This document shows positions 5,693 to 24,894 of a DNA stretch of 40,514 nucleotides, in pieces. The stretch lies in the NCBI GenBank assembly GCA_017440765.1, contig JAFSGO010000038.1, positions 1 through 40,514 of the forward strand. The letters are read 5' to 3'. Both the position numbers and the translations under genes were made by a program. The DNA is from Clostridia bacterium. Lineage in GTDB: Bacteria; Bacillota; Clostridia; Oscillospirales; Acutalibacteraceae. The first letter of the stretch is position 1, and each line of letters opens with the position of its first letter. Below the pieces are notes generated by a model, which did no database searches, was not told where the DNA came from, and was given only the letters and a program-made list of their open reading frames with translations.

Positions 5693-6590
5693 GTAACCAT
5701 TCCTCCGTTCGCAAGACCTGCGCAATTTCGCCCGGTGCTTGCCGTCCGTGCAGTTGAATCAGATACTCAAACACTCCACGCTCTAACACGTCCCGCAACC
5801 CGTCACGCCGATACAGCTCCTCAAACGATCGCGCGTGCACCGTGGCAACCGTCGGCACACCTCGCAAAAAGCCGTCATATACCGCCGATAACTCATCCGC
5901 ATCTCCCAATTCATCCAATAACACCGCACGCGGTGCCAAACAACGCACCGCCTGTTCGATCCCGGCCGCCTTGGGGGTGTAACACAATACGTCACAACCG
6001 AGAAGCGATCTGCCGCCCGACAGTTCTCCGCGTTCATCGATGACCGTTATCGGCAATCGGCGCTGCGCTAATTGAGTGGCAAGATCACGTAAAACACTGG
6101 TTTTCCCACCGGCAGGTTCGCTGCATATCAGTGCACTGTGTACGCCATCGTCACACAGAAACGGCATCAACCTTTCAGCACAACCGTCATGCTCTCGCCT
6201 CACACGAATACATAAGGCACTGATTGCGCGATAACCGGCAACCGCACCGCTGTCCAGCACCGCCGTTCCGGCAATACCGACGCGGCATCCGCCCGCCGTC
6301 ACAAATCCGCGCCGCAATTCTTCCCAGTGCGCATATACCGAATACTCCAGCAGGCGGTCGGCAGTCTGCCGAAGCAGTGCTTCACTGCATACGATTCCGC
6401 ACGCACGTTGTCCGGTTGTCTTTCCGGCAGCGGTAACAAACCATTCTTCACCGCCAAACCCCAGTGAAACGGCCTGTCCCGACCGTAGACGGATCTCCTG
6501 CACACGGCTGCCGACCGTCTTATCCAACAAAAGCAACGGCACTTGCAATTCCTTCGGTAACAAGGATACCGCCGTTATATACCCGTTCAT
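5589..6590 (-). CDS. spoIIIAA: Stage III sporulation protein AA (AAA+/secretion-type ATPase)
   Basis: MNGYITAVSLLPKELQ..., Walker A EPAGGKTSVLRDLA and Walker B LLDELG. The 3' end overlaps spoIIIAB by about 100 nt. Confidence 0.85.
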   Translation of the reverse strand: MNGYITAVSLLPKELQVPLLLLDKTVGSRVQEIRLRSGQAVSLGFGGEEWFVTAAGKTTGQRACGIVCSEALLRQTADRLLEYSVYAHWEELRRGFVTAGGCRVGIAGTAVLDSGAVAGYRAISALCIRVRREHDGCAERLMPFLCDDGVHSALICSEPAGGKTSVLRDLATQLAQRRLPITVIDERGELSGGRSLLGCDVLCYTPKAAGIEQAVRCLAPRAVLLDELGDADELSAVYDGFLRGVPTVATVHARSFEELYRRDGLRDVLERGVFEYLIQLHGRQAPGEIAQVLRTEEWLRENVRNRGIAADGFWSRIDRAAHFETPRQHAVVV

Positions 6591-6650
6591 GTTCCTCTCC
6601 ACCTGCCTGTCCTATTCCTATGCATGTCCTTGTTCGGTTAGAACAAAAAT

Positions 6651-6692
6651 GAAAAAAGCAACGGGCTTGCCTTTCAGCAAGCCCGTTGCTTT
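6651..6692 (-). terminator. Perfect 14-bp hairpin with a U-tract on the minus strand (orphan intrinsic terminator)
   Basis: agcaacgggcttgc (6657-6670) pairs with gcaagcccgttgct (6677-6690) around a 6-nt loop. The A6 run at 6652-6657 reads as U6 after the stem on the minus strand. Confidence 0.45.
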
Positions 6693-6848
6693 AGTTAGAG
6701 GGGTGTTTTGAGGAGGGGTAATGCACCCAGCTTAACGAAACAGTTCCGGTGCGGCTCCATCCCTGCTCCCTGAGTACGTTTTCAGTGTAACAGACAATTG
6801 CTTGGGGAATGTGAATTGAGTGTGAATAAACTGTAATAAAATTTTTAT

Positions 6849-6884
6849 TCTCAAAAAAACAAACAAATGTTTGCTTTTTTGAGA
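6849..6884. promoter_or_regulatory. LexA (SOS/Cheo-type) operator within a 36-bp near-perfect palindrome
   Basis: The core CAAAC-AAAT-GTTTG (6860-6873) has the CGAAC-N4-GTTCG architecture with symmetric substitutions. It is flanked by TCTCAAAAAA and TTTTTTGAGA arms and overlaps the lexA -35 box. Confidence 0.6.
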
Positions 6885-6899
6885 AAGATGTGTTATACT
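6871..6899 (+). promoter_or_regulatory. lexA sigma-A type promoter
   Basis: TTGCTT (6871-6876), a 17-nt spacer, then TGt-TATACT (6894-6899). It lies 24 nt upstream of the lexA ATG region. Confidence 0.55.
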
Positions 6900-6922
6900 A
6901 TCCTACGAAAGGGTGATACAGT

Positions 6923-7510
6923 ATGAAACCTTTGAACGAAAAACAACAGAAAATGTTAGCTTTTTTAAAAGAGCGTATACGGACCGGTGTCCCTCCCACC
7001 GTGCGCGAAATTTGCGCCGCCGCAGGAATCAAATCCACCTCAACCGTGCACAACTATCTTCAAAAATTCCAAGAAGCCGGGTATATTGACCGCGACACGG
7101 GGTTGACCCGTTCCATTCGTATGCCGGGTGAATCGGTGTCACACGTGCCGTTGCTCGGTAAAGTCACCGCCGGCCTGCCAATTTTAGCGATTGAGGAAGT
7201 CGAGGACTACGTCCCCTACTCCGGCGGCGGATATCCGACCGAGGAGTTGTTTGCCCTGCGCGTGTCGGGTACCAGTATGCTGAACGCCGGCATTTTGGAT
7301 CGTGATATCGTCATCGTTCACAAAACCCCCGCCGCCAATAACGGCGATATCGTGGTGGCGCTCGTCGGCGACGAAGCAACGGTCAAGCGCATTTATTTTG
7401 AGCGGGATCATATTCGCCTGCAACCGGAAAACGATGCATTTGAGCCAATCATTGTCAAAGAAGCGATCGTGCTCGGCAAAGTTGTGTCATTGCTGCGCAA
7501 TTTCGGTTGA
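6923..7510 (+). CDS. lexA: LexA repressor (S24 autopeptidase)
   Basis: Winged-HTH N-domain (PPTVREICAAAGIKSTSTVHNYL), an Ala-Gly cleavage site (KVTAGLP), and the Ser (VSGTSM) and Lys (ATVKR) dyad. Confidence 0.95.
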   Translation: MKPLNEKQQKMLAFLKERIRTGVPPTVREICAAAGIKSTSTVHNYLQKFQEAGYIDRDTGLTRSIRMPGESVSHVPLLGKVTAGLPILAIEEVEDYVPYSGGGYPTEELFALRVSGTSMLNAGILDRDIVIVHKTPAANNGDIVVALVGDEATVKRIYFERDHIRLQPENDAFEPIIVKEAIVLGKVVSLLRNFG

Positions 7511-7572: not shown

Positions 7573-7924
7573 GGGGACGTAAAGGTTTCGACGGGGACCG
7601 TGAGCCCTGGTAAGCGAGTAGCGGTGCAGGACCGCTATAAACCCTGCAATCTTTTCAAAATAAACGACAACAATAAAGTTGCTCTCGCTGCTTAATTAAA
7701 AGCAGCCGTTCCGCCCCGAAGTACCGCGATCAGGGTTGGAGCGTCGATTAGCGGTGAACGTGAACAAAGCGCTGTCGCGTGCTTTGTCATGACCATGCGA
7801 CTACCGTAACCGAAAGCCTGCCTATCGGCGTTCGGCGAGGGGAATCCCAATTGATCGGCTGCACTCGGAGAAAACCACGGTAAATGATTTTCGGACAGGG
7901 GTTCGATTCCCCTCGTCTCCACCA
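7573..7924 (+). ncRNA. ssrA: tmRNA (transfer-messenger RNA)
   Basis: The 5' end GGGGACGUAAAGGUUUCGACGGGG pairs with the 3' end CGUCUCCACCA, including G3:U. The T-arm is GGGGUUCGAUUCCCC. The tag frame ends ...NNKVALAA with TAA at 7693-7695. Confidence 0.92.
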
Positions 7925-7965: not shown

Positions 7966-8084
7966 TCGCAACGTGGTTGGCATGAATTTGGCAGGAATTT
8001 ACGGGCGCAAATTTTACAACCGCCTGTATATCGTCTGTCAATCAAAGAATATCTTTCCTATGCTTTTTGGCAGGGAGGGATATT

Positions 8085-8501
8085 ATGTCAATTCCGCAGG
8101 AGATCGGTCGAAACATTGTGTTTATGCGCAGCAAGATCGGGGTTACTCAGGAATGGCTCTCACTCGAAACAGAGATTGCCGGCTCTTATTTGCGAGAGAT
8201 CGAGCACGGCCGAGCAAACCCAACCATTGATGTCTTAGGACGCATCGCGCAGGCACTGCAAATCCCGCTCGATCTTCTTGTCACCGAAGGCCTTGAGCAA
8301 AACTACGACCGATATTTCCCCGACAAAGAATTTGATCGCGTTCTTTTCACTGAGGTTGAAGTCTTGTTTTTACACTACATCCTCAAGCAAAGACTTTGCT
8401 CCGACTGCCAGTCTATGGTGGAAACCGAGCGGCAACGATTCAAAAAGACGCATCAGGCGAATGACATCTCTCTCCTCAGTCAGTATATGGGGAGGCGATA
8501 A
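8085..8501 (+). CDS. XRE-family HTH transcriptional regulator
   Basis: MSIPQEIGRNIVFMRSKIGVTQEWLSLETEIAGSYLREIEHGRANPTIDVLGRIAQAL is a canonical XRE HTH. GGAGGG lies upstream of the ATG at 8085. Confidence 0.75.
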   Translation: MSIPQEIGRNIVFMRSKIGVTQEWLSLETEIAGSYLREIEHGRANPTIDVLGRIAQALQIPLDLLVTEGLEQNYDRYFPDKEFDRVLFTEVEVLFLHYILKQRLCSDCQSMVETERQRFKKTHQANDISLLSQYMGRR

Positions 8502-8502
8502 T

Positions 8503-8715
8503 ATGGTTTTGTATAAGCTGCGAATCGATAAGGTGAAGGACGAACAAAATCGGACGCACGCCGTATACGGTGTGGACGTCTTCCAACGCGTCCAGTCTGT
8601 TCCTGACATCTTTACCGACGATCAGAGTGCCGAACGGTTCGTCAACCTGTGCAATCGATTGCAGCTTGCACCGATTCATCTTCACGACGTTATTGAGGAT
8701 ACATTAGCGAAATGA
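8503..8715 (+). CDS. Small conserved hypothetical protein (70 aa), translationally coupled to the XRE gene
   Basis: MVLYKLRIDKVKDEQNRTHAVYGVDVF...LCNRLQLAPIHLHDVIEDTL. GGAGG lies 6 nt upstream. It resembles a small Clostridia-wide family of unknown function, recalled from memory only. Confidence 0.55.
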   Translation: MVLYKLRIDKVKDEQNRTHAVYGVDVFQRVQSVPDIFTDDQSAERFVNLCNRLQLAPIHLHDVIEDTLAK

Positions 8716-8717
8716 CA

Positions 8718-8749
8718 ATACCCTCGCCATTTTGGCGAGGGTATTTGTT
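8718..8749. terminator. Bidirectional terminator between convergent genes
   Basis: ataccctcgcc (8718-8728) pairs with ggcgagggtat (8734-8744), with T/A runs on both sides. Confidence 0.6.
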
Positions 8750-9170
8750 ATCGCTTTTCGTTAGCCATTGTCGAAAGGGTCAAATAAGCAATTTGTAAAA
8801 TTACCAAGCCAAAAGAGGTGAGTATAGAAAACTGAAAACCACTGGTCGCAAATGTATGAATCATGTTATATATATAACGAATCAGTTGTATAACTCCCAA
8901 AATAATAACTCCGTAATTCCAGTTTGTTTTTGTCAGCTCACAGAAAAATTTGCAGATTAATAGCCCCACAAGTATTTCTGAAAAAGAAATACCAACCATA
9001 GCATACCATTCGTAATCTACAGGCCAACTCAACAGTTTAGGGATAATTGGTATCATCGGTACCAAAGACAATAGTATCCACTGCACTATCAGAAATACAA
9101 GTGTCCCTCCTGCATACCCTAAAACAACACCAACTGTGTTAGATAAGATTGTTTTCAACGTCTTCATCAT
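8748..9170 (-). CDS. Hypothetical 140-aa membrane protein (four predicted TM helices), prophage cargo
   Basis: MMKTLKTILSNTVGVVLGYAGGTLVFLIVQWILLSLV..., with AGGAGG 5 nt upstream. The DNA is AT-rich and I recognise no family. Confidence 0.65.
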   Translation of the reverse strand: MMKTLKTILSNTVGVVLGYAGGTLVFLIVQWILLSLVPMIPIIPKLLSWPVDYEWYAMVGISFSEILVGLLICKFFCELTKTNWNYGVIILGVIQLIRYIYNMIHTFATSGFQFSILTSFGLVILQIAYLTLSTMANEKR

Positions 9171-9340
9171 TGTTCCTCCTCAAAATAAAAAAGTGCGCAG
9201 CCATCATAGCTACGCACCGAAAAACGTATGCTATGATTCCTGCGCCACACAGTTCATTTCTCAGAGAGACATGACAAATCAAAGCATACGTTTTTACACA
9301 AATAGTATGCTCTCCGAGAAAAATATTAAACTGTGTGGCA
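9171..9340 (-). promoter_or_regulatory. Structured ~170-nt 5' leader (candidate attenuator or riboswitch) of the 140-aa membrane protein gene
   Basis: Contains an 11-bp perfect long-range helix (9243-9253 with 9329-9339), a nested 9-bp helix, a 13-nt segment (9283-9295) with two alternative partners (9220-9232 or 9305-9311), and a terminator. Confidence 0.45.
9182..9217 (-). terminator. Intrinsic terminator at the 3' end of the leader, 11 nt before the RBS
   Basis: On the minus-strand RNA, GUGCGUAGC pairs with GCUGCGCAC (9 bp, one G-U) around a 7-nt loop, followed by UUUUUUAUUUU. Confidence 0.6.
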
Positions 9341-9346
9341 ATTGTC

Positions 9347-9374
9347 ATTATAGCACACTGAAATTAAAAATCAA
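9347..9374 (-). promoter_or_regulatory. Sigma-A type promoter for the leader and 140-aa gene
   Basis: Minus strand: TTGATT (9369-9374), a 16-nt spacer, then TGc-TATAAT (9347-9352). Confidence 0.55.
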
Positions 9375-9380
9375 GAGCAT

Positions 9381-9413
9381 GTATAAAAGGAGGAGAGTAC
9401 TACACTCTCCTCC
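9381..9413 (-). terminator. Terminator downstream of the 332-aa gene
   Basis: ggaggagagt (9389-9398) pairs with actctcctcc (9404-9413), a 10-bp perfect stem, followed by UUUUAUAC on the minus strand. Confidence 0.6.
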
Positions 9414-9438
9414 GATAATCATTCACTGATTACTATGT

Positions 9439-10437
9439 TCAGTTTTTGTTATGCGCTGACAATTTAGCTTTATAGCATCTTAAAAGAATAATGCCAACAA
9501 TTATTATTGCAAGTCCTATACTCCCAAAAAGCCACCTACACGCTATTCCGCTGGATAGAATTTGTGGGATTATTCCAGTTTTAATGCCAACCAACACTGC
9601 GACACAAATTAGCAGAGCAACCAAAAGACAATAATTGCAAATAAACACTAACGGATATTTTTGAATCGCATTTCCAGTTTGCAAAGATAGCTCGGGTTTC
9701 TTTCCTGTAATATTCAAGATAAAATACATAAACGCAAATAAAAGATTTAAAATGCAAAAACTCCAAGCAATTGCAACAATAACAACATGTATAACAGATT
9801 CGCTTGAATTTTGAGGTATAAATGCGAACAAGCTTTCCAAAGACGAAATACCGCCAAAGATAATAAAGGAAAGCGCCGTAAAAATCGCTACAAGACCTAC
9901 CAATTGTGAGGTTAGTTCCTTTGAAGATTTTGCTAAAGCCGGCTCTAATTTTTTATCGATTGCAGCTTCTAAACCTTTTTGATTTTGTGTAAACAGGGCG
10001 AACTGCATATGTGCTAGCTGGATATGATCATAAAACTTTAAAAGAACGCGAATACGATTAGAGCGCACAGAGTCCGGATTGTTGTCGCTCACTTGATCCA
10101 TTTCATAGTCCAACACATTTTCAATGTTTGTCGCGAAAGTGGTAAACCCTTCATCTTGCAATCCGAAAATATAATTGCTAATACTTGAATATAACAATCG
10201 GTCATATTCGCCTATATAATGATCAAATGCTTCTATCCATCGTTCTCGCGAAAAGAGCTCAGAAGAGCCAGATAGTTCATAGCATAAACGCAATATCTCA
10301 TCATCCATACGCATTCGGCGCTGTTTCCACGGATTAGCATGCGCATTATCGCCTTCTACACTACTCGTACCGAAAGAATTTCCTTTCGTAATGTCTATTT
10401 GCTGTATTATTTTTTTATTAGAAGAAAAAAGTGCCAT
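9439..10437 (-). CDS. Uncharacterised 332-aa protein with a helical cytoplasmic N-domain and four C-terminal TM helices; candidate Panacea-associated toxin or Abi effector
   Basis: A clean ORF starting 6 nt after the Panacea gene. TM segments: LVGLVAIFTALSFIIFGGI, VIHVVIVAIAWSFCILNLLFAFMYFIL, YPLVFICNYCLLVALLICVAVLVGI and WLFGSIGLAIIIVGIILL. I recognise no family. The confidence is for the CDS, not the function. Confidence 0.7.
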   Translation of the reverse strand: MALFSSNKKIIQQIDITKGNSFGTSSVEGDNAHANPWKQRRMRMDDEILRLCYELSGSSELFSRERWIEAFDHYIGEYDRLLYSSISNYIFGLQDEGFTTFATNIENVLDYEMDQVSDNNPDSVRSNRIRVLLKFYDHIQLAHMQFALFTQNQKGLEAAIDKKLEPALAKSSKELTSQLVGLVAIFTALSFIIFGGISSLESLFAFIPQNSSESVIHVVIVAIAWSFCILNLLFAFMYFILNITGKKPELSLQTGNAIQKYPLVFICNYCLLVALLICVAVLVGIKTGIIPQILSSGIACRWLFGSIGLAIIIVGIILLRCYKAKLSAHNKN

Positions 10438-10443
10438 TATTAA

Positions 10444-10872
10444 TCAACCCCCAAAGAAATCTCGAATCGATTGATTGGAGATTGTTTTATCAAAAGGATT
10501 TTGATGAGCTTCCCTCCATGGCTTTTGATCGTGCGTTAACGAAACCAATGATGTAGTTGAATACTGTGCACACTCCTCGAGAATAAGATTAATCACATAC
10601 TTATCTTCATCCTCAATACCAAAATCGCCTTCAGCGATACTTTCCGGAATTCTGGCACCACCAAACATCTTATATTCTCGGTATACGTTAGGAACAACCG
10701 GCCCAAAATCCCACGCTTCTATACGATCTGAAAAGCAAGGGGTATGAATCGAAAATAAAAATTGGGCCTGAATAAAATAAAGCAACTTCTGTAGACGCAA
10801 ATTACTTACTGATCGATTTCGACTAGCTTCATAGCGAATCACATACCTTGCTATCTTAATTGCATCATACAT
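10444..10872 (-). CDS. Panacea / DUF4065 (SocA, GepA, PanA-like) antitoxin-domain protein
   Basis: MYDAIKIARYVI...LRLQKLLYFIQAQFL...RIEAWDFGPVVPNVYREYK...LVSLTHDQKPWREAH matches the DUF4065 signature. GGAGGTG lies upstream of the ATG at 10872. Confidence 0.85.
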   Translation of the reverse strand: MYDAIKIARYVIRYEASRNRSVSNLRLQKLLYFIQAQFLFSIHTPCFSDRIEAWDFGPVVPNVYREYKMFGGARIPESIAEGDFGIEDEDKYVINLILEECAQYSTTSLVSLTHDQKPWREAHQNPFDKTISNQSIRDFFGG

Positions 10873-10963
10873 TTCCCCACCTCCCATTTTTATTGTACAC
10901 GAATATTTTATAAATTTCCACCTTTTTTTACATCTAACGCTTATAACTTATCGTTTAGTATTC

Positions 10964-10997
10964 TATAAAATAGAAAAAAGGCCTATACAAATGACTT
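10964..10997 (-). terminator. Terminator of the lysis operon
   Basis: On the minus-strand RNA, AGGUCUAUGCAA pairs with UUGUAUAGGCCU (12 bp, two G-U), followed by UUUUUU. Confidence 0.55.
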
Positions 10998-11028
10998 GCA
11001 TAGACCTCATTGCTATTATTTTGTATAC

Positions 11029-11232
11029 TTAACTTTTAATTTCAGGCAATCCTGCTACGCTGGTAAGTAAGGATAAAATACCCGCCAACGCAGCGGCGCT
11101 TGCCACCATTATCCAGTTCACATCTCCCATGACAGCGCTTGTGCCAATAGTGGCAATAGCGGTTTGCGCCACCGTTTTGACAGCACGAATACCTGCTGCT
11201 TTTGCCCATCTTAAAACCTTATCCATATTCAT
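11029..11232 (-). CDS. Phage holin (r1t-holin-like small membrane protein)
   Basis: [59 protein letters not shown]. It sits at the end of the lysis cassette. Confidence 0.65.
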
Positions 11233-11239
11233 CTCCCCT

Positions 11240-11536
11240 TTATTTTACTACCAGCGCGATGATCGCGCCGGCTAATGCCCCAACAACGGCAGTGATCGAC
11301 GCCGTGACAACTGTTTTCCAGTGACCTGCAGGAACGGCCAACAGACTCTTGATATCCGATTTCACCTCTCGGACGTCGCCTTCCATATCCACCTGCTTCT
11401 GCGCAATTGTCGCCACACTCTTGACGAGATCACTCATTTCCCCATGTTGCTTTTCCAAGTCATCTAAACGACGGGAATTAGATTTTGCACGATCCTCTAC
11501 GTTTGAAAGACGATGCTCAAGCTTTACCTCGTCCAT
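11240..11536 (-). CDS. XhlA-like lysis-associated protein (coiled coil plus C-terminal TM anchor)
   Basis: [34 protein letters not shown]...[35 protein letters not shown] lies upstream of the ATG at 11536. The longer ORF-track form overlaps the endolysin gene. Confidence 0.55.
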
Positions 11537-11549
11537 GGTCTGCTCCTCC

Positions 11550-12371
11550 TTACTTTTTAACGATCTTGATCTGGATACAGTCAATCGCTTTCCCGAATAC
11601 GCCCGCGTAGCCGTCACCGGTCTTGTCCGATAATCCGGTACACCAGCCGTACCATCTGGCGTTTTGAGCAGCAGACACACGGTACTGCACTTCGTAGCCG
11701 TCTGCACCGATGAGTTGCATTTGCAGCGCATCGATTGCCTCCCCCTTATTGCCCGCGTAATCAGCGTCGTTTTCCACCCACGGCAACCAACGATTTTCAT
11801 CTAGCAAATGTACGCGATAACGCAAGGTACCGACGCTCGGTACTGCCTGCAATGCGGTCATACGCTTATTGACAACGCCGGCATAGCCGTTCGAATCTTT
11901 GTCGTTGCAGTTTGTTACAGGAGCCAACCACTTGTTTGTGTAAACCTTATATGTAACGTTGTGCTGCTGCAGATCGGCCTCCAGGAACGGTGTCGGATCA
12001 ATACGCGTGTTATGCAAACGCACCTCAAAATGTAAATGCGCGCCGTAGCTGCGCCCCGTATTACCCATCGTGCCGATCTCCTGCCCCGCTTTCACGGTTT
12101 GTCCGAGCTTTACGTACACAAGCGCAAGGTGAGCATATAGGGTACTGTATCCGTTACCGTGATCGATCTTCACACAGTTGCCGTAGCTCGCATTACCGAC
12201 AGCCAGTTTATTGTTTTTCTTTCCCGTTTGGCAGAAAACAACTTTACCGTCGCTGTGCGCGACGATCGTATCGAGCTGTGAGCGGTACTTCACCACGTCC
12301 ACCGCTTTGTGCCCTGCGCTGAATTTGGTAGTGATTTGGTTTTCACCGGTTTTTAATACTCTGCTTGCCAT
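11550..12371 (-). CDS. Endolysin: M23 (LytM) metallopeptidase with three ChW-type wall-binding repeats
   Basis: HKAVD, YAHL and GAHLHFEV are M23 motifs. The C-terminal repeats NKWLAPV..GYAGVVNKRMTALQ, ENRWLPWV..YAGNKGEAIDALQMQL and NARWYGWC..GYAGVFGKAIDCIQIKI resemble clostridial hydrophobic-W repeats. Confidence 0.85.
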   Translation of the reverse strand: MASRVLKTGENQITTKFSAGHKAVDVVKYRSQLDTIVAHSDGKVVFCQTGKKNNKLAVGNASYGNCVKIDHGNGYSTLYAHLALVYVKLGQTVKAGQEIGTMGNTGRSYGAHLHFEVRLHNTRIDPTPFLEADLQQHNVTYKVYTNKWLAPVTNCNDKDSNGYAGVVNKRMTALQAVPSVGTLRYRVHLLDENRWLPWVENDADYAGNKGEAIDALQMQLIGADGYEVQYRVSAAQNARWYGWCTGLSDKTGDGYAGVFGKAIDCIQIKIVKK

Positions 12372-15771: not shown

Positions 15772-18700
15772 CTATTCAGCTCTCCACTTTTTCAGCGTTT
15801 CATCCAGTTCACTGAGTGTACCATACAGACCCGTTGCATATAAGAGCTTACGTATACGATTCATCTCTGTATGGTCTCGGCTTTCCACTGCTTTGAGATA
15901 TTGCTTCTTAAAAGTAGCGGTAAAGGATGTACGCACAGCTGATCGCGCTTCCTTTTCAGTCTTGCCGGCTTTAACCTTCCTTTCGACTTGATCGGCAACT
16001 GTGCTCTTCACCGTCGCGGTATCTCCTCGTCCCGCAGCATTCTCTGACCGCTCGATCGCGGAAGTCTCATCTCCTGTGACACCTTCTTCAACTGCCTCTG
16101 CAATACCATACCACGTAAATTCCACTCCATTAGTAAAACTTTTATAGGTATTGCTCACGCCTTTCAGATCTCGCAAAATATTTTCGACAGGAACACCGAC
16201 AATAGCGGATACGGCAGATAGAACACCCAGCAGCTGATCGCTGAACGATTTGTTTTCATTGAAGCAATCCTTAACCGCTTTAACCAGGTTTCCCAGGATT
16301 GTTGTATCCATTCTTTCTATGTCGTATCCTTGTAGAATCGAAACAAGATCTTTGGCGTACGGGATATACATAAGCGGATTAAACGAGTCGATAATACCTT
16401 CCGTAACGTCAGCGATATATTTTTCCAACCATGTTTCATCCTCGTCATCATCCCGTCCGGCAGTCACCAGCGACCTGGCAAGTGCGTTCAGAACGTTTGA
16501 GGCAACTACCGCGGAAACCGTCCGGAATATTGTTTTTCGTCCTTCTTTTCCGCCTACTCGTTTCCCTTGAATAACCGAATCAGCCAACATATTTATGGTA
16601 GTGGTAGACTCTGCCATAAAAGCAGTCGCCATTTTCGCCAAACTGCTCCGACTTCTCATCGCTTCACTGCGAGAAAAAACGGAATCATAAACCTGAGTAA
16701 GCGTGATAACCTCGGTAAACCGTTCACCGCAGCGCTTTAAAAACTCCTCCGATTCTCTGTCCAGATCGGTTGTTGCTGCGATTTCGTTTTTCACTGCATG
16801 CCATATCTCGATCCAACCGACCTCGTCCATGAATGCTGGCAATCGGGAAAGCTTCTCATCACGGTAATCCCCATCCGTAAATAATGCCTTCAGCTTCTCT
16901 CGGCGTTCCTCATACTCGTCTGCCACAATCCAATCAACCGAGCTCTGCCCAACACCGGTATCAAAATATCCCATTTCCTTGATACCTGCTATCGGCGCAT
17001 ACGCTTTCAATTCTTCCCAGTCGCGGTTGTGCTCTTTAAGGTTAAGCGCCTTCACAGCCGCCGTCACAAAATATTTCTTGTCGATTTGCGAACATGCGCG
17101 TGCAACAGCGGTAGGCTGCTGGATCGCAACCGACAATGACAGGTATGTCGCGCCTTTTTTGGTAAGTGCTATCATTTTGTCAGCTGTAGCATCCTTCGAC
17201 GCCTTAATTCCGCCGTTAATATCCTGCAAAAGCGTCTTTACATATTCCGTTGCACCGGACCCGTACGCATTCTGCAAAATTGCTTTGACGGTTTCATTTT
17301 CACCTGTTCTTTGTCTGAAGTTAAAAACCCGGTTAAAATCCTCAAGCGGCAACACAAACGCATGGTACATAGACATATCGTTCACGTGCTTACCCCACAC
17401 GCCGGTAAAATCACTCAGCACAATAGGACTGGTGGAATTCGCGACCGTACTTTCTGTAAATCCGGAATTGATAAGCTTACGCTCTCCGACCTCATCCGGC
17501 TTAAAATCCATATAGTACGCGGAGGTTTTAAGCGGAAAATAATGCTCTTCCGTAAACAGCTTCACTCCGTATAGAGCCACGGAAACCTCGTTACCCTTCG
17601 CCCCCATGGTATCAGACAAATACGCCTGCATATCGTTTACGTATGCCTTTTGCTCCTCGCTCAAACTGGCAACAATATCCGTAAGAATATCCTCCGACAG
17701 CACGTAACGATTTGCCGTGTTCACCTGATACTTGATCGGGATCCCTCTCACGTTTTCTGTAACAATAACGTTCTGATCAAAAATGAAACCGCCGTTTGTC
17801 AAGTGATCTATGGCTTGTTTACCTCTCTGGGAATACGCATACAACGACAGCATTTGTTCAAGCGACAGCGTAAATAATTTCCCGTTCTCCGCTTCAAAGG
17901 TATACTGTTTTTTAAAATCCCACGCAGAGAATCCGTACTTTTTATTCATTTCCAAACGGAAGCACTGCGCATCCTTTGCATCACGATACCAGATATCCTC
18001 GCCCTCGCGAATGTTATTGTACAGATCTACAAGCGTTTTGGAACCGATTGTGCGGAAAGCGTAGATGGGCTTTAGGTTCTGCCACCCCACTTTTTTAATG
18101 TATGCAGCGACCTTTGTTTGCTTATCGATTGATTTGCTCACTGAACGGATTTCATTGATAACAGTATGTGCGGTATCCTCAACACCTTGTGTTGCCTGTA
18201 ACTTGAAAAATTTGTTAGCATTCTTAACGGTTGTTAGCACCATTTTATAGGTGTCATACACTTCCTGTAGCTGTACAATGCTCATATCCTTCACAGCCGT
18301 CCCCTGAACCGAATCCTTGAGCACAAGGATCCTGTTATAAAGGTGCTCGTTATATGCCTGAGCAACAGCAAGCTGTTCGGAGTTTTTGATAGATGCATAC
18401 GCATCTGCAAGCGATTGGAGCGCAGACGACACCGTCGCCTGATTCAACCTGGCACGTTCCCGAGCAAAGACATCAGAAAGATCCCGGTTATATCGTTTGA
18501 TTTTCGCATCAACCTTGTCCAGCATCTCCTGAATATCGAAGATCTGATCGCTGATACGAACGTCGCTCGCCATTTTACTAAGTGCCTCTATCTTGTCAAG
18601 ATATCCGTCCCGCACTTCTAACAAATCAGCATACCGTTTGAGAAGTTCCCCCTCTTTTGCGGTTACGGCGTCCACTCCGTTTCGCACGATCTCTTCATTC

Positions 18701-21700
18701 GTGACTTCCGATGTAAACATGAGCTCAGCAACCGCCAACGCCGATGCGACCGTATCCTTTAGATCCTCCTTAATATTCTGCTTTTTGTTTCCGTGCGCAA
18801 GTAGGTGCTTCAGCTCACGAACAACGCGCTTGATCTTGTGGCGCATTTCTGTCTTGCGTCTTCCCTCAACACCTCTTTCACGCATTTCCCGGTTATGCTG
18901 AATGATTTCCTGTATCCGGTCGGCATCCTTTTGCTTAAGAGAAGCAAGGGCCTCTCGCCCCTTTGCTTCCGCTCTCTTACGCACCATTTCCTTTTCTCGT
19001 TCGAGCAAACTCTTCATATGCTTAGTGGCCTCAAGACTGAGAAGCTTGCGGTCATAAATATTGATTCTGTTTGCTGTCTTGACCTTCTCCTCATTGAGTT
19101 GTTTAAGCCTTGCGGCATCCTTCTTGCCTTTGCTAAAAGAGAGCCTGTAGATTTCACTTTTAATCTCAGCAAGGTGTGACTCAAGTTCTTCAATCTTCGC
19201 GATGTTCTCTTGGTACTGCTGCAAAACATGAAGCTCGTTTTCGCCCACTTTGGTAGAGGTGTCTATCATTTCCGCCAAAGCATTTGCTAAAATAGTGCGA
19301 TTCGTGAGTTTTTTCTTCTGACTCTTGACAGAACCATAGGACATCCCCTTTTCGGGAATATCCTGCTCCTGTTGGTTCTTGACACCGTTGTCTGGTTGTG
19401 TTATACTTACATTGAAAAAAGGCGAATCGTTTAATAGCGAAGGCACAATGCTGCTGGAACTTCTTTGCGATCCGTCTTTTTTCTTATCAAAAATGACTTC
19501 GTTCTTAGGGTTTTCCAGCAGTTTCTTCAATTCCCCTGAATCAGGGGGGAAAGTCGTGACAAGGATGTTATATAATCCACCCTCATAGCCATTCATATAA
19601 ACAGAGTCTTTATCTTCGCCTATTTCCAGTACAGCAAACGCTTTTCTGCCACTTCGCGATGTATAGCCTATAACCTCGACATATCTATCGTTTCCGCCTT
19701 GGTACACGATATATTGCGGATCGCTCATTCCTTTAATAACAGAGATTATATCATCCACAGACATTTTATGAGGCCTTCCCTCTGTGTCCTGTCCGCTTCT
19801 TGCCATTGCTTGATAAGCTTTTTCGGCATCAATCGCAATTGGGTTATTGTCAATGACATCCCCGCGCCGAGACTTCGCCCAATGGATGAGAGGATAAGGG
19901 GTGTTGGTTCGAATTGGAAAATATGTATGCCCGTAAATTCTCCCCGATCTTACGCCTTCAAGCAACTCCCTAACGTCCTCTTCAGTTACTGTTCGCGGAT
20001 CGAATTTGCCATTTCCCTTCTTCTTCGCCTGTTTCTTGATACCGTTATAAGGCTGTGTTATACTCTTTTCATCGCCAACGGTTATATGACCTACCTCCGT
20101 ACGGTTTTTAGCGCTTGCAGGCGAACCGTTGGCCTTTTCATTTGTATAAGCCCCAAATTTGCTTTTCTCCGCCTGATAGTCATCGCCGACTTTTTCTGTG
20201 TCAATCTGTTTTTTCTGACTCTTGACGGAATCGTCCGCCTGTGCTATACTGCGAATGAGCCCAAATTTGGTTCCCCCTAACGGGACTTGTATCCCACAGG
20301 CATGGAACCACTTTTGGGTTCTTTTCTTGTCTTCGTCAAGGTACAGAACGGCGCCATCGGTAATTAGTTTTCCAACATCACGTCTTGCATTAAACGTTCG
20401 CACCTTACTTATGATGTTTCCACCTCTATCTTTTGAGATGGTTACACCCACCATCATAGGAGAACCGTTAACAAAGATGTTTCCAAAAACGCTTATGGTG
20501 TTCTCCTCACTATACTCACTTATCGCTACGGGGTTTGAGATGATACTTGGGATATTATTCAGCAAATCAACGTTAAGATAGTCTCCGTGGTCAACCATAT
20601 TTCGTTTGAGTTTATCAACATCATAGCGAATAACTCCACTAGGCATTCCAACCATGACCAAAGGACTGGCCTCTCCCAACGTCCCAACCTTGACAAAAGA
20701 ACCATGTTTCAGTGTTTTCCACTTTTGTATTTGTGATTTAAAATACTTATCTTCTGTGAAAACTTCACTGGCTGTCTGTTTCTTCTGAAATTTAGGGCTT
20801 ACAGGTTTTGCTTGATCACTTGACCGCAGATGTTCATTGCCTCCTGCGGTGTCATCTTGAAGTCCTTGGTTTCCAGGCGATCCAGCATTTCTATCATCAT
20901 TTCCTCGGTTTTGAGAAAACTGCAAATCCCACAAACCTCGTCTTGGCTCAGACCGAGCCGTTTTAATATCCGCATGAATGCCCCTATCTTCTTCTGCGTG
21001 TACTCGTTCATACAATGCCCTCATTTCTTCATAAGTTCCTGCAACAACCTCAAAATACCCATCTTCCATAGCCTCGATAAGAATATATTTCTTTCTTCTG
21101 CCATCGTAGATGATGGTATTGTCACCGCTTTGACGAGTGGTTTTGTTCGCCCATATCATTGCCGCCGTTGCAAATTCATTATAGACTGACCTTTTTTTCT
21201 TTGCAAGGCTTTTCTTCACCTGCCTCTTGAGGTCACCCTCAGTTTTACTGTTAACATCATTACCCGTCGCCGCCTGAAAACTCTGTGCCGCATCGACAGC
21301 CATATCCTCAAACAATTCATAAAACTTACTTAAGACATCATCCATCCGTTGGAGAGCCTTCGCTTCATCCGACAAACGTTCATCATAGCCGAGCGCATTA
21401 TACTCACCACGGATCTTATCCAAAACCTGGCAGATGTGTTGCTTGATTTTCTCCCACAAAGCATGGTCTTTCTGTTTCAACTGTGCAAGCTTCTCCATCG
21501 CATTGCTGTCAAGAAGCATTCTCTCGCAAGCATCGCATACCATTTCCTCAAATGCAACGTCGAGATCTTTCGTACCAAGCTCCGCCATCTTGAGTTTAAG
21601 TAAATCCGAGGTGGACACATTATGGTCGGCATACTGTTCCATTAGAAAATCAGCAAACACCTTGAACTTCGCGGGAGACCACACCTTAATGAAATGTGTT

Positions 21701-24700
21701 AATTCGTGAGCCATTGTAAACGCAATGGTTTTAGAATCATTTAAGCCTTTCTGAAGGTCAAGATGGATGCTATTGTCATTGGGATCAAAGTATCCATTAG
21801 AATCGCTGCCATATGTTCCGGCAATCGTAGAATCGTAGAACACGATGTCAATACCGAGCGCACTTGCAAGTTGTTTTGCAAGCGCAATCACTCTTTTTTG
21901 CGATTGCGTTGTTACCTTGGCTCCCTTTTCAAATCGAACCCTGCCTTTTTTGTGAGCACCGTTTTTGGAAGCGGTGCTTTTTTTATCATCTACCGCTTTT
22001 TGCGCAGCCTTAATACGTGCTTCAGAAGCGGCCTTACCAATGTTGTATGCCGCCTGTTTCTGTATGGGTGTAAGAGTGGAGATGAAAGTGCCGCGCGCTG
22101 TTTTCTTGATCGGATAGGAATACTCGCCGTAACGATACGCCTCTTGAATGCCGAGAATATAGTCGGTTACGTTACCGCCCTGCTTTTTAAAGTTATTAAC
22201 AAGCACGTTGGCATCGTCAACACTGACTCCCATATCCAGAACAGCCGAATACAGAAGCCCTTCATCATCGGAAGCAAATTCAACGTCTTCCGCGCTGACC
22301 GTTTCACCGTTGCTCAGGCGAAGCATCATTTTCTTCCCTTGAATAGAATCGATCCCGCTGATCTCGACGACCTCACCTGTCGTCGTGTCAACCGTCACCC
22401 CACTGTCGGTCACTTTAAATCGGTTTTCGGGAACAACTTGCTGAACCGTACCTTTATACGGCGCAACCGCCTCCCCGTTTTCCCTGCGCCGCGCCGCTTC
22501 CGCGTTGGAATATGGAATAAAAGGCGCGTTCTCAGCCACATCATTCATCCCGGCAGACGAATCCGTTACCGTGTTTCCGTTGACCTCACCGGTAACCGCT
22601 TTATCAGTAAGACTCTTATGGAGATCCTGATATCCTTGCACCCGTTGGTTGACTGTGGAATTCGGGTTAATAATAACGTCACGCATCGTCTGTGCAATAA
22701 GTTCGTTTTCTTCGATTGCCCTTACCTGTGATTTTGTGAAATATCCGCCCTCCACAGCTTTGTTAAGCCATTTTGCAATTGTTTGAGCGTGACTCGGTGC
22801 AATCCCCTTACGGGTAAGCGATTTGGTGATCTCCGCCAAATTCGTATCGGACAACGAATCTGCTCCCACCTCATGGAGAAGTCTGCCGATGGTATAAGCA
22901 CCGGTCTTCTCATTAACTTTGCCGGCAAGTCGATGCGCTACCGTATCGGCAGACATGGACTTGCCGAGCTTGACAAGGTTAGCTGTCTCACCTTTGCGGA
23001 TCACGTCTTTTCCTTTTTGATAGGTACTTACCTCCCCCGATACGATAGAGCCACCTTCTAACATACCGGCCGATATTGCGCCGAGCAGACCGGAATAGGC
23101 AACCTGCTGCCAGTCAACGTCTTTATCAGTATACAACACAAGGTTTTCAAAATACGGATTTAGGATTTCTTGTAAACCTTCCTCAAAACCTTCCGAAAGC
23201 AAGCTACCACCGAATTTAATGGCACCCCGTGCAAAGGCATTGTCAATACCAGATATCATTTTCGAGATAGCACCGTTGGTTAACGTACCGCCAAGCTTGC
23301 TGATACCGCCAAGAAGAAACTCCAGACCGGCTTCAGAACCGCCAACGAGTGCTGCATAGGAACGAGCCTGCCCTTTGTCATATCCCAGGTTTATCATCTC
23401 TTGATAGGCATTACCCGCAGCAGATGCACCCATCAAAGTGGCACCGACAACTTGGCCGGCCAACGGATTAATCAGACCAACAGCAGTCGACGTCAACACA
23501 GAAGGCAGCATGTTTCCCGTTGTGGTAGCGGCATCAAATCCAATTTGTCCAAGCGAGCTTCCCAAAATGTTCGTCCCAACGTCGTAAAGATCATCCCTCA
23601 CCATGCCGGATGTCATCTGCATAGAAGACACCGGAATATAGTCGTCACCGTTAAAAAAATTAGCCACACCGGAAGCGAATTGATCAATACCCGCTCCAAA
23701 ACCGAAGGCAATTTCAAGAAACGTGTTGTCCTTTAATTTCTCAAACCGTTCCTCCGCTTCTCTTCTGTTCAACGACTCTTCAATGCTGCCAAGATATTCA
23801 TTCGCTTTATCTTCACCAGAAGCGCCATAATAGTAGCAATAGGTTTGGTATTCCTTATCGCTCATATACTTTGCTGCATGTTCTTCAGGTGACAGAGGAG
23901 TTGCATTACCGTCCCTGTTATACAGATAGTGATATGGTGTTCCGTCCTCATCGCGGTTATTTCGGAAAGCGATAATAGCGTTATTGACATCGGAACCAAA
24001 CACTGTACCTCTACCATTGGTTCCCAAGAACGCATCGTGAGTTGCAAGTCCCTTGCTTTCACCGATAGCAGCCTTGTTTTCGAAATCAGGATCATAATTT
24101 TTCGATTCAGGATCAGCAACAGATGCCATTTCGATGCTCTTCTGGATACGGGAAGCCACGTTGTAATACTGTGTCTTATCGGACAGAGTTTTATCAATGT
24201 CTACTCCGCCAAACTTTCCATTGGCGGCTTCCCTTGCCTTTCTTCTTGCCGTATCGGCCATATATCCTTTTTTTAGATATTCAGTTAGATTTTCGGCATA
24301 ATAAACATCCCATTGACGCTTTTTCCCCTTCAGATCTTCGATTTCCGCGCTCAAAGCAGGAAGGTCAGCAACCTTTTGCTCTTCGTAGACCTTCAAAGCC
24401 TCCAAATCGGCTTTGTACGCATCCTCCGTGTTCCATTGCGACCAATAATCAAAATCACTTTTATATGTCTCAGAAATACTGGTATAGTTTTCTTTCGCGC
24501 TCTTCAGCCAATCACGAATACCGGCTGCCGTCTCAGCATCATAAAGATCACTATATTGATTGAGCGCATTTAATATTCGTTGAGACTCCGCATCAAACTT
24601 GGACTTTTGCGCGGAAAAAGAAGTATATGCTTCCTCCGTATCCCCACGAAAACGATCGTTGATGAACTCCTCATTTTCATTGAAAAAGCGCGTTTTGTAA

Positions 24701-24876: not shown

Positions 24877-24894
24877 AATGCTCTCCCCTTGCAA

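Follow-up and report, generated by a model that had tools for sequence, protein, structure and literature searches.

A Panacea gene coupled to a four-helix membrane protein in a gut Clostridia prophage: a probable PanAT cassette from a widespread family

The window analysed here is a stretch of 40,514 nucleotides from a Clostridia bacterium of the Acutalibacteraceae (GenBank assembly GCA_017440765.1, contig JAFSGO010000038.1). Near one end of its prophage lie two adjacent genes, panA and panT (Table 1). A preliminary description of the letters had set this pair between the lysis genes and the prophage end, and our annotation agrees, with the holin and endolysin genes on one side and, on the other, the tmRNA gene that forms the host junction. 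Beyond the tmRNA, sister contigs carry LexA and SpoIIIAA. The tmRNA was the only match in an Rfam scan of the locus, and no att repeat of its 3' end was found inside the window. The pair is also AT-rich, as had been noticed, with a GC content of 0.366-0.371 over positions 9001-11000 against 0.43-0.50 in the structural genes and 0.49-0.57 in the host flank. A downstream 140-aa TM gene was considered as a third component of the cassette and rejected, given that it has no counterpart in 50 related loci.

The two genes are spaced by 6 nt, exactly as first reported (panA stop at 10446-10444, panT start at 10437, both on the minus strand), and a Shine-Dalgarno-like G-run for panT lies inside the 3' end of panA. 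For panA itself the longest open reading frame spans 10444-10887 (147 aa), but the start at 10872 that had been proposed is the better one, because the sequence GGAGGTG (10884-10878) precedes this ATG with a 5-nt spacer and because gene callers also predict the 142-aa form on four independent contigs. A promoter-like site, which is a consensus match only (9 of 12 positions), is flanked by the holin terminator on one side and the panA ribosome-binding site on the other. Hairpins had been described on both sides of the pair; they are present, although we place them at 11008-10978 and 9413-9389 and not at 10964-10997 and 9381-9413. The terminator-like hairpin behind the holin gene would insulate the pair from transcription of the lysis genes. 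The two genes are thus tightly coupled as one unit, which apparently carries transcription signals of its own.

Table 1 Features of the panA-panT cassette and its surroundings in the window.
Feature	Position	Strand	Evidence or details
tmRNA gene, host junction at the prophage end nearest panA-panT	7573..7924	+	ARAGORN; Rfam RF00023, 162 bits
Intrinsic-terminator-like hairpin closing the panA-panT unit	9389..9413	-	11-bp stem with 6 GC pairs, then T-run
panT, 332-aa putative membrane toxin	9439..10437	-	ORF, phrog_5763, AF2 model, topology, PanA pairing
panA, 142-aa standalone Panacea protein (DUF4065/PF13274), putative antitoxin	10444..10872	-	Pfam, phrog_1281, Shine-Dalgarno sequence, sister-contig calls, AF2 model
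Promoter-like site upstream of panA (TGGAAA, 17-nt spacer, TACAAT)	10892..10920	-	Consensus scan
Terminator-like hairpin after the holin gene	10978..11008	-	14-bp stem, then T-run
r1t-type holin, last lysis gene upstream of the cassette	11029..11232	-	PF16945, E 1.8e-13; phrog_443 holin
M23 endolysin	11550-12371		Lysis gene near the cassette

PanA matches Pfam SocA_Panacea with 69.6 bits (E 5.5e-19; gathering score 25.7 bits) and phrog_1281 with an E value of 8.5e-39. This bears out the DUF4065/Panacea identity that had been read from the motifs LQKLLYFIQAQ, IEAWDFGPVVPNVY and LTHDQKPW, all of which are found in the product. The AF2 model (pLDDT 95.8, pTM 0.91) is one compact domain without an added module, and neither the fold of the model nor the sequence gave a significant match in the PDB. 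A conserved face of PanA comprises W54, G57-V59 and H114-W119, and H114 may correspond to H120 of the Bartonella PanA.

PanT has the topology of an inner-membrane protein with four TM helices (N-in, C-in) and a large helical domain in the cytoplasm, in keeping with the architecture first suggested for it. A disordered tail (residues 1-32) is followed by a helical cytoplasmic domain (36-114) and a stalk helix (123-205) that continues into TM1, and the TM segments occupy residues 176-200, 216-240, 263-287 and 301-322. Positive charges are distributed to match: 20 K/R in the N-domain (1-175), none in either outside loop, three in the inside loop and three in the C-tail. The AF2 model is all-helical (pLDDT 80.5). 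Across the 241 sequences of the family, K134, D137, H138, L141, A142 and Q145 are nearly invariant, and the mean consensus frequency reaches 0.80 in TM1 and 0.62 in TM2. That TM1, TM2 and the stalk are so strongly conserved suits a specific machine, not necessarily a toxin, and counts against a toxin reading.

Searches with PanT against Pfam, NCBIfam and PADLOC gave no family above threshold. For one relative, P0110, a precomputed match to Pfam PF28305 is on record. BrkB (19 bits) and DUF4153 were rejected as sub-threshold hydrophobic matches, and the PADLOC model 'C3a194', which matches the family over TM1 only (50 residues, at most 18 bits), was judged an artefact. Foldseek of the model against the PDB returned nothing, the best match being CorA (4ev6_B) at an E value of 1.1 and a TM-score of 0.17, and voltage-gated channels appeared as noise only. 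A profile search of PDB sequences gave GPCR TM noise only, and BFVD yielded uncharacterised phage proteins only. The preliminary description had named a confident match to a housekeeping transporter or sensor as one outcome that would speak against its reading, and none was found by Foldseek or by the profile search. A CorA-like funnel channel was rejected on the low TM-score and the lack of a GMN motif in the PanT sequence. The likeness to such channels is one of layout only, a stalk helix continuing into TM1, and Pfam CorA reaches 18.9 bits at most, only in the PanT counterpart of Moraxella phage Mcat28 described below.

The coupling of the two genes is seen far beyond the window. In 48 of 50 related loci panT is directly preceded, on its own strand, by a PanA homologue; the gaps run from -35 to +7 nt, save for one of 44 nt. 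The two unpaired loci are L019, in which a contig end hides the upstream region, and L049, a truncated remnant. Three remote relatives all have PanA upstream, and the genes are likewise coupled in prophages of Coprococcus comes and Blautia obeum, where strains with a WP_117835773.1-type pair occur, and in Gemmiger and Mediterraneibacter records. The proposal that homologues would keep synteny with Panacea genes is thus almost always borne out, and the antitoxin-first order, the conserved two-gene unit and its status as prophage accessory cargo hold with it. Pairwise identities of PanA and PanT are correlated with r = 0.91, a value reached in none of 2,000 Mantel permutations; co-inheritance at this strength is what argues for a physical complex, which the two proteins may form. 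Among the loci examined, no intact panT without PanA was found where the upstream region could be read. By contrast, panT is split or truncated beside an intact panA in four or more independent backgrounds, phages or contigs (L018; L063; L064-L066; and L068 with 153-168-aa members of its cluster). This asymmetry is expected if PanT is harmful when unguarded.

The genes around the pair vary from locus to locus, and there is no conserved operon of more than three genes. Most relatives lie upstream of a small terminase gene or in a non-phage context. Mobile surroundings include phage packaging and replication genes, integrase or IS66 and a contig with a RepB-type regulator, and defence-type surroundings include GmrSD with a helicase, HsdR, and an nSTAND NTPase with AAA_15/21 genes. 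Across phages and other mobile elements that number in the hundreds, panA and panT are inherited as a pair.

PanT had been called unclassifiable, but it belongs to the phrog_5763 superfamily (E 5.6e-11 over residues 80-279), in a match that covers N-domain, stalk and TM region; hhalign gives a probability of 93-94%. The PanT family itself comprises at least 1,141 clusters at 50% identity. A core member of phrog_5763 (E 1.6e-92) is gp52 of Streptococcus phage P9 (YP_001469232.1), which scores 40 bits with the PanT family HMM; the Mcat28 protein scores 69 bits. Starting from P9 gp52, phmmer found, at E <= 1e-3, 190 of the 242 sequences in a set made up of 241 family members and the Mcat28 partner, with the best shuffled decoy used as control at E 0.13, and jackhmmer recruited every real sequence and no decoy. 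As judged from these sequence comparisons, PanT and P9 gp52 are members of the same superfamily. The suggestion that the module is a new PanA-PanT system is therefore not supported, given that the superfamily already includes a listed PanT: in Table S1 of Kurata et al. 2022 (PMC8832971), P9 gp51/gp52 appears among the PanAT pairs, its toxin being of the 'membrane' kind and toxic in Escherichia coli. In the same study P9 PanA failed to neutralise gp52 in E. coli, which counts against an antitoxin role in the gp52 family, and other predicted 'membrane' PanTs, for example that of Clostridioides difficile, were not toxic (PMC8832971). In Dataset S1 of Kurata et al., cluster T4 is a plausible candidate match for the PanT family; its rows list Lachnospiraceae and Ruminococcaceae, antitoxin-toxin order, gaps between -1 and 4 nt, and CDD matches of coiled-coil type (PMC8832971).

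The P9 pair (YP_001469231.1 / YP_001469232.1) resembles the window pair in several respects. In both, PanA comes first, with a membrane protein of the phrog_5763 superfamily adjoining or overlapping it, and the slot is shared as well, behind holin and endolysin where the prophage ends. The two membrane proteins have in common a helical N-domain, a stalk motif like K..(D/E)H..LAQ.Q and a first TM helix of the form IF..L.F..FGG.S.L. However, the similarity is remote, at about 40 bits to the family HMM, and P9 gp52 is a protein of 269 aa with three hydrophobic segments as read from the sequence, compared with 332 aa and four TM segments in PanT. The PanAs differ in length (173 aa in P9, 142 aa in the window) and the hosts differ as well, Streptococcus against a gut Clostridia-type bacterium. 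Phage Mcat28 (AKI28246/AKI28245; phrog_38724) offers a second likeness, a PanA (PF13274, E 1.3e-15) overlapping the start of a 293-aa membrane protein that keeps the stalk motif KF.EH..LAQ.Q of the PanT family. This pair differs in its proteobacterial host, in an N-terminal extension of about 75 aa on PanA and in the three hydrophobic segments, again read from the sequence, of the partner.

SocAB, the Caulobacter type VI toxin-antitoxin system, shares with the window an antitoxin with a Panacea/SocA domain. It was rejected as the identity of the pair: PanA scores 76.6 bits with the NCBIfam SocA equivalog against a cut-off of 190, and its partner is a TM protein with no likeness to SocB. SocA is a ClpXP adaptor, and we know of no demonstration of this mechanism for standalone PanAs.

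Membrane PanTs have been validated from E. coli (T3), Bartonella apis/choladocola (T12/D11) and Helicobacter sp. 13S00482-2 (Kurata et al. 2022, PMC8832971; Ernits et al. 2023, PMC10440598). These toxins have TM segments, collapse the membrane potential and are neutralised by Panacea, and they were placed in separate clusters (PMC8832971). By description, the Helicobacter toxin is like PanT in having a helical N-terminal region and C-terminal TM helices, whereas T3 and T12 are described as small peptides; this comparison is of descriptions and not of sequences. In the Bartonella pair a standalone Panacea neutralises directly, binding a cytoplasmic segment before the TM region of the toxin (PMC10440598).

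Under the PanAT criteria of Kurata et al. 2022 (PMC8832971), the window pair has a Panacea domain above the gathering score, tight gene spacing and conserved coupling; the nearest relatives of its putative toxin adjoin PanA in every examined case with the upstream region present, with the exception of the truncated remnant L049, and there is no operon of more than three genes. A PanA-PanT reading is strongly supported. We consider the pair a probable toxin-antitoxin cassette of PanAT type (type II-like), part of the accessory cargo of a temperate phage from a spore-forming gut Firmicute. PanT would then act at the cytoplasmic membrane, most likely by depolarising it, and the nearly invariant TM1, TM2 and stalk helix suggest that depolarisation may proceed via a specific oligomeric assembly. 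By analogy with other standalone Panacea antitoxins, direct binding of PanA to the cytoplasmic part of PanT would keep the latter inactive. Should PanA be lost or inactivated, whether by phage infection, with the element itself or by a cue sensed by Panacea, PanT would be set free and growth would stop; the benefit could lie in abortive infection, in excluding competing phages, or else in stabilising the prophage. This mode of action rests on topology and analogy, because neither window protein matches any defence-system model in PADLOC-DB 2.0 and no structural analogue of PanT was found.

The pair might instead be mainly an addiction or stabilisation cassette that keeps the prophage or element in its host by post-segregational killing and is not directed at other phages, a view we hold to be unlikely. 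Its relatives are always on mobile DNA, be it prophages, integrase or IS66 neighbourhoods or the RepB-type regulator contig, stabilising genetic elements is a classical toxin-antitoxin function (PMC8832971), and the lack of a PADLOC match points the same way. However, segregation rarely removes an integrated prophage, several copies adjoin restriction, GmrSD or nSTAND genes as defence genes do, and the window copy sits in a post-lysis moron slot, apparently with its own promoter and terminators. Addiction and the PanAT reading are not mutually exclusive.

Less likely still, PanT could work at the membrane in a non-lethal way, for example as a superinfection-exclusion factor, a channel or a sensor, and the Panacea protein could regulate it or act as its partner. 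Simple membrane-disrupting toxins do not usually show near-invariance like that of TM1, TM2 and the stalk in so diverse a family. Moreover, not all predicted membrane PanTs were toxic and P9 PanA failed to neutralise gp52 (PMC8832971), and the NetFlax authors put Panacea forward as primarily a sensor (PMC10440598). On the other hand, the homologue P9 gp52 is toxic (PMC8832971), and the constant company of PanA beside intact panT, together with the recurrent broken copies next to intact PanA, argues for a harmful protein. That the pair is a lysis-cassette accessory, for example a holin/antiholin-like timing device, is very improbable: holin and endolysin genes do lie next to the pair, here as in phage P9, and 3 of 27 family members give weak Phage_holin_3_6 matches (best E 0.0026), but these fall below any threshold and cover hydrophobic segments only, a terminator separates the holin gene from the pair, and most relatives lie away from lysis genes in the contexts given above.

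Membrane-disrupting (depolarising) PanTs are an established and validated class (PMC8832971, PMC10440598), so the locus opens no new category. What it brings into view is one very large, strongly conserved family of putative membrane toxins that is faithfully coupled to standalone Panacea. Its members are common among the prophages that cultured gut Lachnospiraceae carry (Coprococcus comes, Blautia obeum, Mediterraneibacter faecis) and also in streptococcal phages, the tested phage P9 among them. Hence, it is a good and tractable target for learning how a standalone Panacea controls a polytopic membrane effector. More speculatively, and with a low probability in our view, PanT may, in place of crudely disrupting the membrane, be the founding member of a new class of gated oligomeric membrane channels that PanA keeps closed while sensing phage infection, with assembly proceeding from TM1 (FTALSF..FGG.SSL), W225 and N231 of TM2 and the K-DH-LA-Q face of the stalk. 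If so, these channels would be among the most widespread abortive-infection effectors in prophages of streptococci and of Clostridia from the human and ruminant gut.

The AT-rich end of the prophage carries two genes on the same strand, panA followed by panT, for which the low GC content (0.366–0.371 over 9001–11000) stands against 0.43–0.50 in the phage structural genes and 0.49–0.57 in the host flank. The preliminary description of this two-gene locus holds in every particular, that is, both open reading frames, their 6-nt spacing, the flanking hairpins, the AT-richness and the placement between the lysis genes and the prophage end. Its panA coordinates are also right: the longest open frame runs over 10444–10887 (147 aa, minus strand), but the start at 10872 is preferred because the Shine-Dalgarno-type motif GGAGGTG (10884–10878) precedes that ATG with a 5-nt spacer, and because gene callers predict a 142-aa product on four independent contigs with an identical locus (sister contigs). 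For panT, a G-run within the 3' end of panA is a possible ribosome-binding site. Downstream of the pair lie a 140-aa transmembrane (TM) ORF, a helix-turn-helix (HTH) and a DUF6514 gene on the opposite strand, and then the tmRNA gene, past which the sister contigs carry LexA and SpoIIIAA.

Features of the PanA-PanT locus and predicted segments of PanT (nucleotide positions in the window; residues where stated)
Feature	Position	Strand	Remarks
tmRNA gene	7573–7924	+	tag peptide DNNKVALAA
XRE-type HTH gene	8067–8501	+	PADLOC HTH_VI, E 1.7e-13
DUF6514 gene	~8503–8715	+	70 aa
140-aa ORF	8748–9170	-	same AT-rich island as the pair
Terminator-like hairpin	9218–9192		between promoter-like site and start codon of 140-aa ORF
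Promoter-like site of 140-aa ORF	9374–9347		best of region; 10/12 matches, extended -10 TG
Terminator-like hairpin after panT	9413–9389	-	same strand as pair
panT	9439–10437	-	332-aa ORF; start 6 nt past panA TGA
panA	10444–10872	-	Pfam PF13274, 69.6 bits (cut-off 25.7), E 5.5e-19; phrog_1281, E 8.5e-39
Promoter-like site	10920–10892	-	TGGAAA, 17 nt, TACAAT; upstream of panA
Terminator-like hairpin after holin gene	11008–10978	-	same strand as pair
r1t-type holin	11029–11232		upstream of pair
186-aa ORF	11240–11800	-	overlaps endolysin gene end
M23 endolysin	11550–12371		upstream of pair
3040-aa ORF	15772–24894	-	single ORF in structural region
PanT N-domain	residues 1–175		K/R 20
PanT TM1	residues 176–200		K/R 0
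PanT outside loop	residues 201–215		K/R 0
PanT TM2	residues 216–240		K/R 0
PanT inside loop	residues 241–262		K/R 3
PanT TM3	residues 263–287		K/R 1
PanT outside loop	residues 288–300		K/R 0
PanT TM4	residues 301–322		K/R 2
PanT C-tail	residues 323–332		K/R 3

Several neighbours deserve mention in their own right. The prophage probably integrated at the tmRNA gene, which has LexA just upstream and stands about 150 nt from the first cargo gene of the AT-rich region; its 3' end is not repeated in the window, so the second att site would lie outside the window. The strongly hydrophobic-looking 140-aa ORF has no family match anywhere and recurs on contigs of the same phage only. Between the tmRNA gene and the cargo, the XRE-type HTH gene and the DUF6514 gene directly after it could form a separate small regulatory or toxin-antitoxin-like pair. 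The 186-aa ORF between the endolysin and holin genes, called as only 98 aa on the sister contigs and with weak DUF7365 and XhlA-like coiled-coil matches, is probably a lysis accessory gene, and the 3040-aa ORF presumably encodes a giant tail or tape-measure-type protein.

PanA is clearly a Panacea (DUF4065) protein, modelled by AF2 with very high confidence as a single compact α/β domain (pLDDT 95.8, pTM 0.91) without an HTH, PAD1, ZBD or Phd-C extension. Neither its sequence nor its fold has a counterpart among solved structures. With 76.6 bits in NCBIfam, where the cut-off is 190, it does not count as a SocA equivalog. For PanT, searches of Pfam, NCBIfam and PADLOC returned nothing above threshold, Foldseek found no solved structure (best E 1.1) and a profile search of PDB sequences gave TM noise only; the outcome named beforehand as grounds for giving up the toxin reading, a confident resemblance to some housekeeping transporter or sensor, thus did not arise. 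Weak BrkB and PADLOC 'C3a194' matches to PanT and its family cover hydrophobic segments only. The view of PanT as unassignable and new is nevertheless not borne out. A word-indexed search found 169 relatives, all unnamed, an exhaustive profile search found 1,141 representatives of 50%-identity clusters at E ≤ 1e-3 (224 at E ≤ 1e-30), and residues 80–279 match the PHROG superfamily phrog_5763 (E 5.6e-11). One relative, P0110, has a precomputed match to Pfam PF28305.1, which may be a recently curated family covering PanT; rescanning with a Pfam copy that lacks this entry gave weak DUF4153 only.

Panacea was named by Kurata et al. 2022 (PMC8832971), who predicted 88 PanT clusters and validated nine pairs, three of them with membrane-depolarising toxins. 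Their Table S1 lists the Streptococcus phage P9 pair YP_001469232.1 / YP_001469231.1 as 'toxic; failed to neutralise; membrane', so that a toxic homologue of PanT exists, and neutralisation by PanA failed in the one heterologous test within the superfamily. The P9 toxin, gp52 (YP_001469232.1), is a core phrog_5763 member (E 1.6e-92); from taxa and gene order, cluster T4 of the Kurata dataset is a candidate for its cluster. The hhalign probability is 93% for gp52 and 94% for its counterpart in Moraxella phage Mcat28, which likewise encodes a PanA and TM-protein pair, and an HMM of 241 family sequences scores the two proteins at 40 and 69 bits, respectively. In the reverse direction, phmmer from gp52 recovers 190 of 242 sequences (the 241 family members and the Mcat28 partner) at E ≤ 1e-3, with the best shuffled decoy at E 0.13, and jackhmmer recruits all real sequences and zero decoys. 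Window PanT has four TM helices, whereas three hydrophobic segments were counted in the P9 and Mcat28 proteins. By these links PanT branches off, at some distance, within a superfamily that the PanAT authors had on record and had tested in part; it is a new divergent member of a recorded family, and support for reading the pair as PanA-PanT is good.

The main test of the pairing was the survey of homologue neighbourhoods proposed in the preliminary description, and it shows the pairing to be conserved. Among 50 PanT loci from metagenomes, GTDB genomes and IMG/VR, 48 have panT directly preceded, in the same orientation, by a PanA homologue (E 1e-38 to 1e-60), with gaps of -35 to +7 nt plus one of 44 nt; at one related locus the PanA ORF is present but was missed by the gene caller. 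The exceptions are L019, whose upstream region is cut by the contig end, and L049, a 220-aa remnant without N-domain and without PanA. PanA also precedes PanT in all three remote representatives, in the contexts of an integrase and AraC regulator, a type I HsdR and an IS66 element, and a 314-aa family member (hhalign probability 100%, E 5.6e-56) comes after the widespread WP_117835773.1-type PanA of Coprococcus comes, Blautia obeum and Mediterraneibacter faecis. Conservation beside related pairs does not extend to the 140-aa gene downstream, so the cassette is a two-gene module. Pairwise identities of PanA and PanT correlate closely (r = 0.91 over 33 non-redundant pairs, 0/2000 Mantel permutations as high); the two are inherited as a unit, without partner swapping inside the PanT family. 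Loci L001 and L003 carry, about 1 kb downstream of the pair, a second Panacea gene (6057–6509) overlapping an unrelated 198-aa gene (6487–7083), which puts two different PanAT-like pairs into one accessory region of the same phage. Locus L020 (NZ_JAUNXX010000127.1), a 2.4-kb contig binned as Methanobrevibacter sp., has most likely been mis-binned and would be of phage or bacterial, not archaeal, origin.

Broken copies are one-sided. No intact panT without PanA was seen among loci with a readable upstream region, but at least four phage or contig backgrounds, independent of one another, have split or truncated panT beside intact PanA (L018; L063; L064–L066; and L068 with the 153–168-aa members of the Coprococcus-type cluster). 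This is the pattern predicted by a toxin-antitoxin relationship, and no other indirect evidence here speaks as strongly for PanT being harmful when unguarded. Loci L065 and L066 encode the N-domain in an 85-aa ORF of its own, a form found in several samples.

Hydropathy and charge predict an N-in, C-in protein with four TM helices. The AF2 model (27 homologues, pLDDT 80.5, pTM 0.49) has a disordered tail (residues 1–32), a helical domain (36–114, pLDDT ~95) and a very long helix (123–205) continuing straight into TM1, followed by three more long hydrophobic helices. Conservation among 241 aligned members is strikingly uneven: mean consensus frequency is 0.80 in TM1, with F186, T187, F191, F194 and G195 invariant, and 0.62 in TM2, with W225 invariant and N231 at 0.98. 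One face of the stalk helix (K134, D137, H138, L141, A142, Q145) is near-invariant, and so are three N-domain residues (R80, Y83, N104); TM4, the C-tail and the N-terminal tail (0.13) vary freely.

We have high confidence in the identity of the module as PanA-PanT and moderate confidence in membrane toxicity and direct neutralisation. PanT would act at the cytoplasmic membrane, most likely by depolarisation, and, because TM1, TM2 and one stalk face are near-invariant, it would do so as a defined oligomeric assembly and not by non-specific disruption. PanA may bind the cytoplasmic N-domain or stalk and keep PanT silent, with loss or inactivation of PanA releasing it. Ernits et al. 2023 (PMC10440598) found that a standalone Panacea neutralises directly, touching the cytoplasmic segment before the TM region of a Bartonella toxin, and suggested Panacea as a possible sensor.

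In the window and in phage P9 the pair follows the lysis genes at the prophage end; its usual place in phages is just upstream of the packaging genes, not beside lysis genes, which argues against a lysis function. The flanks of 26 non-redundant loci hold mainly small and large terminase, portal, RusA, primase and serine recombinase genes. Some copies adjoin GmrSD and helicase, HsdR, or nSTAND and AAA_15/21 genes, neighbours that fit a defence role without proving it. What the loci show is a mobile unit, carried mostly by phages, in which a gene for a standalone Panacea is obligately coupled to one for a polytopic membrane protein. Its benefit may, with low confidence in the specific role, lie either in abortive infection or the shutting out of other phages, or in keeping the element stable.
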